DNA from: a virus
Direction: 5' to 3' (one strand)
DNA: 64,000 nucleotides
Virus record (IMG/VR): IMGVR_UViG_3300025150_000004
Coordinates: 1 to 64,000 of that record
Below are positions 4,297 to 54,222 of this stretch, one piece after another. The position numbers and the translations under genes were made by a program. The stretch's first letter is position 1. The number at the start of each line of letters is the position of its first letter. The notes beneath the pieces were generated by a model. It was not told where the DNA came from. It did no database searches and saw nothing but the letters and a program-made list of their open reading frames with translations.

Positions 4297-4929
4297 TTAG
4301 GCGAGCGTCCACCCCTTGTGGTGTTTTCGCTGACCGGAGAACAACAACTGCATCCCCTGTCGGGTCAGTTCGTGTTCTGTACAAAAAGCTGACAATGAGG
4401 GTCGAACCTGCATTAGATCCCCCGACGGGGACTTGACCTGGGGGTACGGGCTCCTCCGTTTCGAGAAACTAATCTTGGCCCGATCTTCGGTGCTCGGGGG
4501 CGTCTTCCGCCCTCCCGAACACACGGCGTTCCTGTTGCCTTTCATCTTCTCGGAGATCTTCCGCTTGGTTGCGGCTGACAGCGTGAACCCTCGGCAACTC
4601 CCGGCCTCGTTCAGAATGTTGTAACACTTCTCCTTTGATGTTCTGTCCAGCCACGCCTGTTCTTCCGACAGAAGGTCATCCGGTCCCACCCAAGCGAGGA
4701 CTGTGAAAAGGAACTCCCCCTCGCCGTACTTGTTGTAGGCGTTCTGTAGGGGGTTGTTAGGGTGGATACCTGCCCGGAGCCGGGCTCGGTGCTGGGTAAG
4801 CCTTCGGTAGAGGTCTGCCGTGGATCCAATGTACCTTTTGCCCGATGGGGTGTGGGAGATCTTGTAGATCCCGCTTTTGCGGGCAAGGGCTTTGTAGGCC
4901 GAGCCGCCAAGGTTGGTGTCTACGTTCAC
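4297..4929 (-). CDS. GIY-YIG homing endonuclease with NUMOD-like DNA-binding repeats
   Basis: SGIYKI...RYIGST...R...H...LQNAYNKYG...E...YN motif series; NUMOD3-like TKRKISE. Confidence 0.9.
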   Translation of the reverse strand: MNVDTNLGGSAYKALARKSGIYKISHTPSGKRYIGSTADLYRRLTQHRARLRAGIHPNNPLQNAYNKYGEGEFLFTVLAWVGPDDLLSEEQAWLDRTSKEKCYNILNEAGSCRGFTLSAATKRKISEKMKGNRNAVCSGGRKTPPSTEDRAKISFSKRRSPYPQVKSPSGDLMQVRPSLSAFCTEHELTRQGMQLLFSGQRKHHKGWTLA

Positions 4930-6234: not shown

Positions 6235-6240
6235 ATGGAG

Positions 6241-6579: not shown

Positions 6580-6723
6580 AGACGGGGGTAGGAGTCGAAC
6601 CTACTGTGCTTGTATGCTCGGCGCTGATGCTCCCGGCCCCGAAGGGTAGGAGCGAGTCCGTGAGCGGGATCTGCATTTGCAGACTGGTTTACGGCCAGTT
6701 GCCCTCCACAGGGCGTCCCCGTC
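6580..6723 (-). ncRNA. Extended tRNA-like RNA, Tyr (GTA) loop, with conserved inserted domain
   Basis: Acceptor GACGGGG/CCCCGTC; T arm; loop CCGTAAA; ~75-nt insert. Confidence 0.75.
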
Positions 6724-7965: not shown

Positions 7966-8010
7966 AAAGGTGCTGAGGCTGGGTGACCACCAGCACCAGT
8001 TGCCGCTCTT

Positions 8011-8025
8011 CAGTTGTCAAAGACC
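8011..8025 (-). promoter_or_regulatory. boxA-like antitermination site
   Basis: GGTCTTTGACAACTG resembles rrn-leader boxA (TCTTT(A/G)ACAA); 45 nt before the first tRNA. Confidence 0.55.
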
Positions 8026-8085
8026 GCCCCGGGTCCAACGACCCGGAGCCCCCAGCCGGTGCCGGGGTGGTTCCCGAAGGAACTT

Positions 8086-8129
8086 AAACGACGAAGCCCC
8101 CTCGGGCTCTCGGCCGGAGGGGGCTTCGT
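8086..8129 (-). terminator. Attenuator/intrinsic terminator in the tRNA-operon leader
   Basis: 13-bp stem ACGAAGCCCCCTC/GAGGGGGCTTCGT followed by CGTTT. Confidence 0.8.
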
Positions 8130-8154
8130 GAAGCGCTGGGCTGTTACGCCTGGC

Positions 8155-8256
8155 TTACGCCGATGCCACCTCCGGGCCGTACTCGGACAGGTACGACCAC
8201 GAGCGGGTAAGGCTCGTGCTTGTCCGGGTCTCGAAGGTGGTAAACAAGCGGTTCAC
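8155..8256 (-). CDS. Putative attenuator leader peptide MNRLFTTFETRTSTSLTRSWSYLSEYGPEVASA
   Basis: GTG start after GAGAAG; lies between promoter and terminator; codons match the array anticodons; 3' end is complementary to the terminator 5' arm. Confidence 0.75.
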   Translation of the reverse strand: MNRLFTTFETRTSTSLTRSWSYLSEYGPEVASA

Positions 8257-8301
8257 GGTTCTTCTCGTCGTTCAGGGCCGGGCGTGTCCCCGGTGATGGT
8301 C

Positions 8302-8340
8302 ACTATGGATCCTCTCGGGACCCGTGTCAACAACTTTTTT
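8302..8340 (-). promoter_or_regulatory. Sigma70 promoter of the tRNA operon
   Basis: TTGACA-17-CATAGT with an upstream A-tract. Confidence 0.8.
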
Positions 8341-10461: not shown

Positions 10462-12093
10462 ATGAACTACCAGATCGACCTGAAGACAAAAGCCGTCACC
10501 GTTCACAAGGGGGCCGAGGCCCGCAAGCGGCTGCTGGAAGGGGCCAAGACCCTGGCCAAGTGCGTGGCCGTGACCTACGGCCCAGGCGGCCGGGTGGTCA
10601 TGCTCGACCGGGCCGTGGGGCTGCTGGCGACCAAGGACGGCGTGACCGTCGCCCGTGAGATCGACGTAGAAGATCCGGTGGCCAACCTCGGCTGCCAGAT
10701 CCTCAAGACGGCCTGCATCAGGGTCAACGACGACGTGGGTGATGGGACGACCTCGACGGCCATCGTGTCGGCGGCCCTTCTCGAAGAGGGGCAGAAGGTT
10801 ATCGCCGGGGGCATGGCCCCCATCGAGATCCTCCGTGGTGTCCAGGCGGCGGCCCAGCGATGCTACGAAGTCATCGAGAGCCTGGCTTCGCCGGTGGAGG
10901 ACCAGGCCCTTCTCGAACGGGTGGCCATGATCGCCAGCAACGGTGATGTGGAGGTGTCCCAGAAAATGGCCGAGGCGTGCATGGCCGTGGGCAACGACGG
11001 CACGCTGACCATCGAGGACGGCAACTCCGTGGGCATCGAACTCCAGTTCAAGGAGGGGATGGAGATCGACCGGGGGGCGGCATCCCAGCACTTCCTCGGG
11101 ACGCTGAACGAGCGGGTCCTCGAAGGACCCCTCGTGGCCGTCATCGGGGCGGACCTGCGGACGGTGGACGATGTGCGGGGCGTGATGGAGGTCGCCTCCC
11201 AGTGGCCCAACCACGAACTGCTCATCATCGCCCAGTCCATCGAAGGTGACGCCCTCAAGACGATGCTGATGAACGACACCAAGGACGTGATGAAGTGCGT
11301 CGGCATCAACTCCCCAGGCTTCCACGACAGGAAGAAGGAGATCCTCAAGGACATCGCTGCCCTCACCGGGGCGGACTACGCCGAACCCACCCTCGGGTAC
11401 GACCTCGCCAACTGGGACCCCGAGTGGTTCGGAGGTCTCCGCAAGGCCACGGTCGAGGCGAAGAAAACGGTGTTCGTCGCCTACGACGAGGCGGAGGAAC
11501 TGGTCGAGGAGCGGATCAAGCACCTCAAAGCGGAGAAGCGACACGCCAAGAGCGAGTACGATACTGACAAGCTCAACGAGCGGATCGCCAAGCTCTCCGG
11601 CGGCCTGTGCATCATGCAGGTTGGGGGCTACACCGAGACGGAGATGAGGGAGCGGCGAGCCCGGATCGAGGACGCCCTCGGTTCTGTCCGTGCCGCCCTG
11701 GCCGAGGGAGTGGTTCCCGGGGCCGCCTCGGCCTATCACTACTGCGCCGCCATGCTCCTGCTGGACCTGGATGCAGGGGAGGCCGAGGGCAGCATGGAGT
11801 TCATGACCGGGTGGCGGATCCTGGCCAAGGCGCTCCAGAAGCCGTTGGAGGTCATCGCCTCCAACGCCGGGCATCCGTCGGCGTACACGGCTCAACTCCT
11901 GCTCGACGGCTACAAGTCCGGTGAGATGAGCCCTTGGCAGGGGTGGGACGCCGAGACCGGGGGCGTCCGCAGCCTCGACGAGGACCCGGCCGTCGTGGAC
12001 CCCGTGGCCGTCGTGCGCTCGGTCATCGAGGCGTCCACCTCCGCCGCCGGGACGCTGCTCACCGTGGAGGCCAGCCTGTCCAAGGGGGGCTGA
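10462..12093 (+). CDS. groEL: GroEL-like chaperonin
   Basis: VTYGPGGR, TKDGVTVA, GDGTTS, ERIAKLSGG and GVVPG motifs. Confidence 0.95.
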   Translation: MNYQIDLKTKAVTVHKGAEARKRLLEGAKTLAKCVAVTYGPGGRVVMLDRAVGLLATKDGVTVAREIDVEDPVANLGCQILKTACIRVNDDVGDGTTSTAIVSAALLEEGQKVIAGGMAPIEILRGVQAAAQRCYEVIESLASPVEDQALLERVAMIASNGDVEVSQKMAEACMAVGNDGTLTIEDGNSVGIELQFKEGMEIDRGAASQHFLGTLNERVLEGPLVAVIGADLRTVDDVRGVMEVASQWPNHELLIIAQSIEGDALKTMLMNDTKDVMKCVGINSPGFHDRKKEILKDIAALTGADYAEPTLGYDLANWDPEWFGGLRKATVEAKKTVFVAYDEAEELVEERIKHLKAEKRHAKSEYDTDKLNERIAKLSGGLCIMQVGGYTETEMRERRARIEDALGSVRAALAEGVVPGAASAYHYCAAMLLLDLDAGEAEGSMEFMTGWRILAKALQKPLEVIASNAGHPSAYTAQLLLDGYKSGEMSPWQGWDAETGGVRSLDEDPAVVDPVAVVRSVIEASTSAAGTLLTVEASLSKGG

Positions 12094-50431: not shown

Positions 50432-51412
50432 ATGAGCCGCAAGAAATTCACGCTCTACTGGTCGAGCCTCAAGCTCTACGAGGATTGCCCCCAGGCTTTC
50501 CTGTGGAGCAGAGGTTGGGGGGCCATCGACGTAGGTGGGGGGCCAGGTCGCCCCAAGCCGAGGCCCTTCAAGGACAGCCGCCACCATGCCGTGATGGGCA
50601 TCGTCATCCAGTCCGTGCTGGAGTCGATGTACAACAAGGAGTGGTGGAAGCACCCCACGGAACTCAAGAAGCTCCTCGACGAGGAGCTTGAGCGGCAGTT
50701 CAAGCTGGAGATCACCAAGAACTACATCGACTGGCGGCTCGCAGGACCCAAGGACGAGATGTTCCGGGTCTGCCGGGACGGGGTGTACGGGTTCCTCAAG
50801 ACCCTCAAGGCCCACAAGCTGGTCGGCCAGTACGCCCGCTGTGAGGTGGACTACGTCGCCTACATCGACAAGTGGAGCCCGGTGGGCGGCCGGATGGACT
50901 TCCTGATCCGGCGGAACGACGAACCCAACAAGGGGATCACCATCCTCGACGGCAAGAACTCCAAGCACCGGGGGAAGTACACCGACCCGGACCAGCTTCG
51001 GTTCTACGCCCTGGTCTTTTACCTCAACACGGGGGTCATGCCTGACCGGCTCGGGTTCATCTACTTCCGGTTCCCTCACGGGTACATCCCGCCCGAGGAA
51101 GAGTGGGAGAAGGACGCAGAGGGCAACCCGATCAAGCCCGAGCCCGACTCGGGGGTCGAATGGGTGCCGTTCTCCCGGGAAGACCTCAAGGGGCTGGCTC
51201 TGCGGGCCTTGGAGGCCCGCAAAGGGATCGAGAAGGAGAAGTTCGAGGCTACGCCCAAGCCCTCCATGTGCAAGCTGTGTGACTTCGAGAGCGTGTGTCC
51301 TCAACGCCAGACTCAGATCGCCTCCAATCGTCGGCAGCCCAAGAACAAGGAGGAGGCGTTCGACGGGACCACCGGCTTCGTCGAGTTCGGCTTCGGCTCC
51401 GAGAGGGGATAG
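50432..51412 (+). CDS. PD-(D/E)XK (RecB/Cas4-like) nuclease
   Basis: S.LKLYEDCP, GRMDF, ILDGK, QL.FY and C..C.....CP motifs. Confidence 0.85.
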   Translation: MSRKKFTLYWSSLKLYEDCPQAFLWSRGWGAIDVGGGPGRPKPRPFKDSRHHAVMGIVIQSVLESMYNKEWWKHPTELKKLLDEELERQFKLEITKNYIDWRLAGPKDEMFRVCRDGVYGFLKTLKAHKLVGQYARCEVDYVAYIDKWSPVGGRMDFLIRRNDEPNKGITILDGKNSKHRGKYTDPDQLRFYALVFYLNTGVMPDRLGFIYFRFPHGYIPPEEEWEKDAEGNPIKPEPDSGVEWVPFSREDLKGLALRALEARKGIEKEKFEATPKPSMCKLCDFESVCPQRQTQIASNRRQPKNKEEAFDGTTGFVEFGFGSERG

Positions 51413-53559: not shown

Positions 53560-54222
53560 ATGAGGACCGAGGGTCAAGTACGGCACAAGCTCAAGCAGGT
53601 GTTCTATCGCCACCTGTCCAAACGGTTGGCCGAGGGCCTGGCCGAGGTGCCGGAAAACTGCATGTACAACCGGCGGCCAAGTACGCATCCCCGGATGACG
53701 CCCCTCGAAGACCTTCCTCGGGTCTGCATCCATGCGGAACAGGCCGGGGCCATCTGTGACCGGAACCACGAATCTTCCGCCGATTACGCCTCCTGCCCGT
53801 TTTTCGTTCCGGTGAAATCCAAGGAGGTGCTCAAGCGGGAGTTCGTCGAGTTGGCCCGGAAGAAGCGGGACATCGTGGCCGAGATGATGCCGGACGCTGC
53901 GGCCCTCATGTGGGTGCTCGAAATGGAGGGCGGAGTCCCAGAGGGGGAGGCAGAGAGCGCTGCCAACGGCGAGGCCGAGGGGGATGAGGAAGAGGAGCCT
54001 GCCCCAGTGGTGGTGCGGCGGGAGAAGGCCCCCGTATTCGAGATGGGGGAGCAGGGGGACGTAGCCCTGGTGAAGTTCGACCTTCCTCCCCTGGATATGA
54101 TCGACCGCCCGACCCCTCGATGGTGGGCCTTCTGGCGATGGCGGATGTGGCCTTGGAACTGGTTCCGCTCAGGATCCGAGCCACTGGACTGCCCCATCGC
54201 CTCACCCGGGGCGGACGGATGA
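53560..54222 (+). CDS. Hypothetical Cys-containing protein
   Basis: GAGG RBS; operon position. Confidence 0.65.
   Translation: MRTEGQVRHKLKQVFYRHLSKRLAEGLAEVPENCMYNRRPSTHPRMTPLEDLPRVCIHAEQAGAICDRNHESSADYASCPFFVPVKSKEVLKREFVELARKKRDIVAEMMPDAAALMWVLEMEGGVPEGEAESAANGEAEGDEEEEPAPVVVRREKAPVFEMGEQGDVALVKFDLPPLDMIDRPTPRWWAFWRWRMWPWNWFRSGSEPLDCPIASPGADG

Follow-up and report, generated by a model that had tools for sequence, protein, structure and literature searches.

Organization of the Locus

The window analyzed here is a stretch of 64,000 nucleotides (nt), the first 64 kb of a 142,891-base IMG/VR viral contig (IMGVR_UViG_3300025150_000004). It carries an array of phage transfer RNA (tRNA) genes preceded by a short leader (7966−8340) that has the makings of a leader-peptide attenuator. 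The purpose of phage tRNA genes has been debated for decades, with compensation for codon usage set against replacement of tRNAs destroyed by host defenses. To our knowledge, next to nothing has been learned of their regulation. Full-text literature searches did not turn up any description of tRNA genes, phage or cellular, under leader-peptide control, in agreement with the statement of an earlier, sequence-only reading of this DNA that no phage example has been described. The papers on phage tRNAs and tRNA-targeting defenses found in these searches contain no discussion of phage tRNA regulation.

All leader elements of the window lie on the minus strand. The sequence-only reading had placed there a promoter, a 33-codon open reading frame (ORF), a 13-bp terminator, and a boxA-like motif, and each was recovered where that reading had put it. 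The promoter is of the sigma-70 type (TTGACA-17 nt-CATAGT, 8302−8330), with an A-tract upstream and 10 of 12 consensus matches; three promoter-like sites of this score occur in the region versus 0.9 expected. The leader ORF (8155−8256) starts with GTG and ends with TAA. Four segments of the transcript, regions 1−4, can be assigned to competing helices. Region 1 (8232−8240, codons 6−9) is a candidate anti-antiterminator that pairs with region 2 when the ORF alone is folded to its minimum free energy (MFE) structure. Region 2 (8152−8176) comprises the 3′ end of the ORF from its Pro-Glu-Val codons together with the stop codon, and RNAduplex and footprint folding predict it to be the 5′ strand of an antiterminator. 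Region 3 (8114−8129) is the 5′ arm of the terminator in the folds and alternatively pairs with region 2, whereas region 4 (8091−8104) is the 3′ arm, as assigned from the folds and RNAalifold. The predicted terminator hairpin (8129−8091) has 13 outer and 3 inner pairs (−32 kcal/mol) and is followed by a U-containing tail (8081−8090), which is a weak U-tract in the window. Between regions 1 and 2, within the ORF, the folds place a central hairpin of 7 bp with a 7-nt CUUACCC loop (8198−8218), a candidate pause hairpin.

The tRNA array occupies 3191−7965 on the minus strand and is interspersed with homing-endonuclease genes. Of the 22 tRNA genes counted in the sequence-only reading, 21 were verified by annotation tools, 17 by ARAGORN and 4 by Rfam (7621−7761, 6410−6538, 6240−6314, and 5996−6066, two of them unusually long); the remaining one, at 6580−6723, was not verified. 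Under relaxed ARAGORN settings, the tRNA at 6240−6319 has the Trp anticodon CCA. The array contains tRNAs for Leu (six), Ser (three), Thr (three), Phe (two or three), Tyr, Trp, and Glu, along with a tRNA with a UAU anticodon. GIY-YIG and HNH endonuclease genes lie between the tRNA genes at 4297−4929 and 5349−5900 (minus strand).

Conservation of the Leader in Sixteen Lineages

The leader was compared with relatives from viral and metagenomic contigs, 15 of which, together with the window, constitute a set of 16 distinct leaders. Eight of the lineages were reached through synteny, with the divergent genes next to the leader (encoding a 200-aa protein, HAD_SAK, cREC, and GroEL) as anchors. The syntenic loci are L003 (on a 435-kb contig), L004, L011, L014, L135, L139, and L141, and they carry minus-strand tRNA arrays with an amino-acid set nearly identical to that of the window. 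The other eight lineages were found with a DNA pattern that joins the Pro-Glu-Val codons of region 2 to the terminator 5′ arm of region 3 and leaves the rest of the ORF unconstrained. These are L147, from viral contigs, and L171, L178, L167, L166, L183, L245, and L190, from metagenome contigs. In the loci found in this way, the pattern is in frame at the 3′ end of a 24−35-codon ORF that stands behind a promoter, and tRNA genes follow within 120−530 nt. The order promoter, short ORF, hairpin, and tRNA array is common to all 16 leaders. About 15 of them have a −35 element followed, at a spacing of 16−18 nt and in the equivalent position, by a TAnnnT-like −10 element. The window leader belongs to a family recognizable by two features, a Pro-Glu-Val ORF end and the CCCCCTCCGG terminator arm, and the window has a single such cassette. 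When the same pattern was searched in bacterial and archaeal genomes, one per species, no leader-like case was present among the first 120 matches listed. A scan of viral contigs for the boxA-like pattern gave more than 100 stretches, nearly all unrelated; the sole leader among them, L117, is identical to L011.

In these relatives the ORF carries a coding signature. Its frame is open in all 16 leaders, whereas frame +1 contains stops in 14 and frame +2 in 6; the chance of an open frame estimated by shuffling is 0.24−0.70 per ORF. The ORFs span 24−35 codons, begin with ATG (11 leaders) or GTG (5 leaders), and end with TAA, TAG, or TGA. Five leaders have a conserved 5′ part and a conserved 3′ part in common, and among them the spacing of the two parts varies by whole codons. 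In L004, L167, L166, L245, and L190, the −35 hexamer (spacer of 16−17 nt, TAnnnT −10) begins 35−36 nt ahead of the start codon, which therefore falls at the predicted transcript start, as in a leaderless mRNA; all five of these ORFs start with ATG. Two peptide motifs recur, Trp-Ser-Ser-Leu-Tyr and, near the C-terminus, Pro-Glu-Val, and the middle of the peptide is conserved in composition rather than in sequence. The sequence-only reading had made conservation of the ORF a check on its proposal, and the ORF, the terminator, and the alternative pairing are kept in the 16 lineages.

Codon Content of the Leader ORF

The proposal that the ORF samples the codons served by the array was based on codons 4−26, of which 21 of 23 had been said to encode amino acids covered by the array. 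The recount gives the same figure, with Leu, Phe, Thr, Glu, Ser, Trp, and Tyr making up the 21 and Arg both exceptions. For the comparison across lineages, the sensing window was taken to run from codon 2 to the ninth-last codon and hence to include all codons before region 2. Leu, Ser, Thr, Phe, Tyr, and Trp account for 279 of the 371 sensing codons in the 16 leaders (75%; range 62−83%), and their share in the long ORFs of the window phage that are rich in GC at third codon positions is 27%. The enrichment of these six core amino acids has P values between 3 × 10⁻⁴ and 2 × 10⁻⁸ per leader. It is confined to the sensing window, as the last eight codons hold 0−3 core amino acids and show no enrichment. 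It is also confined to one frame. The array of the window could read 20 of its 24 sensing codons against a background of 0.34 (P = 1.2 × 10⁻⁶), and the other frames contain 6 and 6 readable codons. At six syntenic loci with near-complete arrays, the tRNAs of the locus itself could read 18−22 of 23−25 sensing codons (P = 10⁻⁶ to 10⁻⁹; background readability of 0.25−0.35), with 3−9 readable codons in the other two frames.

Synonymous codons are spread such that most anticodons of the array are probed. Under strict pairing, only the array anticodons TAG, TAA, and TAT lack a leader codon in the window, which bears out the earlier statement that CTA, TTA, and ATA alone are missing; when U34:G wobble is allowed, 15 of the 16 array anticodons are probed. 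At the six syntenic loci, all or all but one of the array anticodons are probed, and resampling of synonymous codons gives P = 0.015−0.14 per locus. The leaders favor TTT, TAT, TTG, CTT, and ACA, all of them rare codons in phage genes, with TTG and CTT common among the Leu codons. Wobble codons ending in U are overused: TTT makes up 12 of 20 Phe codons compared to 7% in phage genes, and TAT makes up 9 of 15 Tyr codons compared to 8%. Such slowly decoded codons would raise the sensitivity of a sensor. All 14 Glu codons of the 16 leaders are GAG, the sole codon read by Glu tRNA(CTC).

If the leader samples the array, its codons should follow the array from one relative to the next, as the sequence-only reading had anticipated, and they do so in several respects. 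Across the six syntenic loci, a sensing window has Glu codons if and only if the array includes Glu tRNA(CTC), with four loci having both and two having neither. The array of L004 includes Arg tRNAs CCG, TCG, and ACG, and its leader contains the codons CGG, CGA, and CGC. An AAG codon is present in the leaders of L166 and L245, with Lys tRNA(CTT) in L166, and L190 combines a TGC codon with Cys tRNA(GCA). Summed over eight leaders, 145 codons are readable when every leader is matched to the array of its own locus, versus 133.8 ± 3.5 for permuted arrays (P = 0.002). L190 and L166 also contain a second cassette of promoter, mini-ORF, and hairpin in front of a second tRNA block (oriented positions 10499−10750 and 5594−5815, respectively). 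The second blocks serve Arg, Lys, Asp, Ala, Pro, Glu, Asn, Ile, Gln, His, and Gly, amino acids that the second ORFs use. The second cassettes were examined less closely than the first; within each genome the two leaders fit their own blocks reciprocally (Fisher P = 6 × 10⁻⁴ for L190 and 0.02 for L166). The hairpin tail in the second cassette is of the TTCGTCGTT type, as in the first cassette.

RNA Structure and the Ribosome-Footprint Model

The window leader folds to −104.8 kcal/mol compared to −79.5 kcal/mol for shuffled sequences (z = −5.3). A terminator hairpin is predicted in all 16 leaders, with energies from −25 to −36 kcal/mol, and RNAalifold applied to a MAFFT alignment of the 16 recovers only the terminator helix, with both-side changes at 6 pairs. 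The 5′ half of the leaders is too variable for alignment, and the 1:2 pairing and the central hairpin were assessed sequence by sequence. In ORF-only folds of 14 of the 16 leaders, region 2 pairs with approximately codons 4−9 (region 1) around the central hairpin. The stem of this hairpin differs in sequence between lineages while its structure is kept, and a CUUAC loop is present in many.

Complementarity between the 3′ end of the ORF and the terminator 5′ arm, a central element of the sequence-only reading, stands up to calculation. The 2:3 duplex of the window has an RNAduplex energy of −28.1 kcal/mol, within the best 1% of random 36-nt windows from the same genome. In the eight leaders tested, this duplex ranges from −17 to −28 kcal/mol and falls in the best 0.5−6% of same-genome windows in each case. 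To model translation, the transcript up to the terminator loop was folded with a ribosome footprint of 28 nt. With the A site in the sensing window, region 3 pairs with the ORF at a mean probability of 0.63; with the A site at the last three codons or the stop, this value drops to 0.11, and the effect has the same direction at all 16 loci. This is the behavior that the sequence-only reading had predicted for a stalled ribosome and for one at the stop codon.

A TTGACA sequence occurs in the CTTTGACA(A) motif that follows the terminator in 12 of the 16 leaders. It was considered as the −35 element of a second promoter and rejected; in 12 of 12 leaders, no TAnnnT is found at a spacer of 15−19 nt. 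With no promoter between the hairpin and the first tRNA, the tRNA genes would depend on read-through.

Proposed Mechanism and Alternative Explanations

Taken together, anatomy, conservation, codon statistics, and thermodynamic behavior, all obtained by comparison and computation, suggest that the leader is probably a ribosome-mediated, multivalent leader-peptide transcription attenuator that gates the phage tRNA array, with negative feedback by the array's own products. The attenuation proposed in the sequence-only reading thus gains support from the comparison across 16 leaders, as far as sequence can provide it. We infer that the ORF is translated, that transcription terminates at the hairpin, and that tRNA shortage, caused by starvation or anticodon nucleases, is the natural signal. 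In the proposed mechanism, the host RNA polymerase would start at the promoter at 8330−8302 and transcribe the 33-codon ORF. The ribosome would then meet codons 2−25, which are mostly for Leu, Ser, Thr, Phe, Tyr, Trp, and Glu, with synonymous codons spread over the anticodons of the array. Region 2 could pair with either region 1 or region 3, and region 3 would otherwise pair with region 4 to form the terminator. With fast decoding, the ribosome would reach the end of the ORF and cover region 2, the 3:4 helix would form, and transcription would stop before the tRNA genes. With scarce aminoacyl-tRNA, the ribosome would stall at a sensing codon, leaving region 2 free to form the 2:3 helix in place of the terminator, and the polymerase would pass the boxA-like motif and enter the tRNA genes. 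The array would be induced upon depletion of the matching host tRNAs, and it would be self-limiting because its own products speed decoding of the leader.

Several observations weigh against this assignment or limit its reach. The search pattern through which half of the leaders were identified itself specifies the region-2 and region-3 motifs. A search of sequencing runs found no RNA run that holds the window sequence, and translation of the ORF and termination at the hairpin are thus predictions only. The start codon of the window is a GTG after a weak purine-rich stretch, and most of the other phage genes inspected have GGAGG-like sites. A simple terminator scan did not return the window hairpin because its loop is long and its tail, an interrupted U-tract, has only 4 T in 8; runs of 5−7 U follow the hairpin in the relatives L147, L171, L166, and L011. 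The antiterminator is a conserved complementarity rather than a covarying helix because regions 2 and 3 are nearly invariant. In equilibrium folding with no ribosome, 2:3 pairing wins in most leaders; the 1:2 helix is accordingly only a candidate competitor of the antiterminator, and an untranslated leader may read through instead of being super-attenuated. The match to the arrays is also imperfect. Three codons of the window leader specify Arg, for which its array has no detected tRNA; in L139, no tRNA that would read the TCA codons of the leader was detected; and in L166, the second block contains Glu tRNA(CTC) although the first leader is free of Glu codons, and tRNAs for Thr, Tyr, and Trp are missing from the detected array. 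The enrichment P values overstate independence because the amino-acid set spans many codons and the lineages share descent. Finally, promoter-like sites (5900−5873 and 3412−3384) and endonuclease genes lie inside the array, and these sites could drive parts of it independently of the attenuator.

The alternative that shares most with the proposed mechanism has the ORF translated and the hairpin acting as an attenuator, with the signal being overall translation capacity or coupling, such as ribosome supply or the stringent response, and the richness in Ser, Leu, and Thr being inherited or imposed by structure. The geometry would indeed need only the timely arrival of a ribosome at region 2, the ORF sequences double as helix strands, and the gaps in the array match (the Arg codons of the window, L139, and L166) would be expected. 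However, a general signal does not readily account for an enrichment that is limited to the sensing window and to one frame, that persists between the window and L014 although the central sequence has been replaced, and that shifts according to which of the Glu, Lys, Cys, and Arg tRNAs the array contains. Nor does it readily account for two cassettes of one genome that differ in step with their tRNA blocks. We regard this explanation as unlikely, although it is the strongest of the alternatives.

The remaining explanations dispense with attenuation, and both appear improbable. In one, the ORF encodes a small functional protein, and the hairpin, acting as a constitutive or partial terminator or as a stabilizer, separates it from the tRNAs. 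Conservation of the ORF and recurrence of its two peptide motifs would fit such a protein. However, those motifs fall on helix strands, the central part of the peptide is kept in composition only, and in all lineages the alternative pairing extends into the 3′ end of the ORF; moreover, with no promoter between the hairpin and the first tRNA, the array would depend on read-through. The other explanation, which we place marginally lower still, is a noncoding structured leader like that of an rRNA operon, serving as a processing stem, an antitermination element, or a 5′ stabilizer, in which the open frame is incidental to a GC-rich sequence. The very stable fold, the outer stem closing the leader (described below), and the boxA-like motif after it are in keeping with such a role, and shuffling at 64% GC leaves a 33-codon frame open with a chance of about 0.4. 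Against it stand the frame that is open in all lineages while frame +1 is interrupted in 14, start and stop codons that are interchanged yet kept, in-frame insertions and deletions, an ATG that in five lineages falls precisely on the predicted transcript start, and a codon bias that is frame-specific. A pyrBI-type arrangement, in which the ribosome itself blocks the terminator, was also considered and set aside as unlikely, as the stop codon of the window lies 25 nt before the terminator 5′ arm.

Relation to Known Attenuators

The mechanism proposed for the leader is classical attenuation; its target, the tRNA genes, and its logic are new. Among known systems, the enterobacterial attenuators (thr, with Thr and Ile codons; ilvGMEDA, with Ile, Leu, and Val codons; trpL, hisL, leuL, and pheL) provide a close parallel. 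They too have a short leader ORF, which can be rich in several amino acids, and the overlapping 1:2, 2:3, and 3:4 helices predicted for the phage leader have counterparts in them, with 3:4 as the terminator; a completed ORF masks region 2 and leads to termination, and a stall leads to read-through. However, they control biosynthetic enzymes, whereas the phage leader is predicted to control tRNAs. The phage leader would also poll six to eight amino acids, with synonymous codons distributed over isoacceptors. The phage ORF runs through region 2, with the stop 8−11 nt beyond, whereas enterobacterial ORFs stop between regions 1 and 2. Some of the phage leaders are leaderless mRNAs by prediction, the element belongs to a phage, and it matches no Rfam leader family. 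The E. coli pheST attenuator is similar in that leader codons adjust a component of translation to the availability of charged tRNA; its sensing is limited to one amino acid and its target is a synthetase gene of the host, whereas the target here would be tRNAs. T-box riboswitches likewise make a choice between a 5′ terminator and an antiterminator that reports the state of a specific tRNA, ahead of translation-related genes. A T-box, however, binds uncharged tRNA directly and without translation, whereas the phage leader has a conserved ORF and no T-box match. In a cmscan search of 2500−9000 at E ≤ 1, no Rfam family, including leader families and the T-box, matched 7966−8340.

If the assignment is correct, the phage would gauge its tRNA supply and make replacements on demand, and the debate over phage tRNA genes would become directly testable. 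Leader-peptide attenuation would extend from amino-acid and synthetase genes to tRNA genes, and the leader would be a compact natural sensor of decoding speed at many codons simultaneously. An annotation rule would also follow, by which the composition of a mini-ORF predicts the content of the array behind it. A wider and more tentative possibility, which we hold to be doubtful at present, is that giant phages have a family of self-tuning tRNA-supply circuits in which transcription of each block awaits slow decoding of the codons that the block serves. Under this reading, the arrays would be induced to replace tRNAs destroyed by defenses (anticodon nucleases and Schlafen-type or PARIS-type effectors) or by the phage's own host shut-off, and the leader would be a counter-defense sensor.

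Other Features of the Leader and the Genome

Additional structures flank the predicted attenuator. A small hairpin in the 5′ untranslated region (8278−8293) appears in the MFE folds, and L014, L139, L141, and L135 have a counterpart of different sequence at the equivalent position. The purine-rich stretch ahead of the start codon (8264−8273), a weak Shine−Dalgarno sequence as judged from sequence and folds, pairs in the MFE structure with the terminator tail (8087−8096) to give an outer long-range stem that closes the whole leader. The same stem is found in the MFE folds of L014, L135, and L141, and in this model it could serve to shut off re-initiation or to mark the transcript for processing. 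On the 3′ side of the terminator lies the boxA-like motif CTTTGACAA (8006−8022), present in 12 of the 16 leaders. It resembles the boxA of rrn operons, an antitermination site bound by NusB/NusE, and is a putative boxA; six viral contigs that share the motif contain no rRNA gene and hence give the label no independent support. A GUGCUG...CAGCAC stem (7970−7996), found in 8 of the 16 leaders, lies directly 5′ of the first tRNA and may be a processing or antitermination element.

The contig has a CheckV completeness of 27%, from which it follows that the phage, which is uncultured, is very large, and its GC content is 64%. According to a search of sequencing runs, metagenomes from groundwater, aquifers, and wastewater contain the window DNA. 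No match to the window, in DNA or in protein, was present in an annotated phage collection, and viral contigs queried with the adjoining 200-aa protein yielded no close relatives. That protein, which belongs to no known family, is encoded by the first gene of a divergent operon (8555−12093, plus strand) together with an HAD_SAK phosphatase, cREC, and a GroEL homologue. Many related phages keep this operon in synteny with the tRNA array. Genes for EndoV and an HD hydrolase are located past the array, and the whole looks like a conserved neighborhood for translation and RNA repair. In L015 (791−2859), a near-identical strain, resolvase and IS605 OrfB/TnpB-like genes lie directly past the HD hydrolase gene.

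Outside the array, ARAGORN calls a tRNA-Pro(TGG) at 51173−51262 and a tRNA-Ser(CGA) at 54004−54095 (plus strand); both lie in coding-like sequence without a leader and are probably false positives. Trp tRNAs of L004 and L011 that ARAGORN had overlooked were recovered on re-examination. Two related phages carry a transfer-messenger RNA (tmRNA) 3′ of their tRNA arrays, at L003:1543−1903 and L011:1−253 (minus strand in both), with Rfam scores of 168 and 49 bits, and the tag peptide of the L003 tmRNA was read out by ARAGORN.

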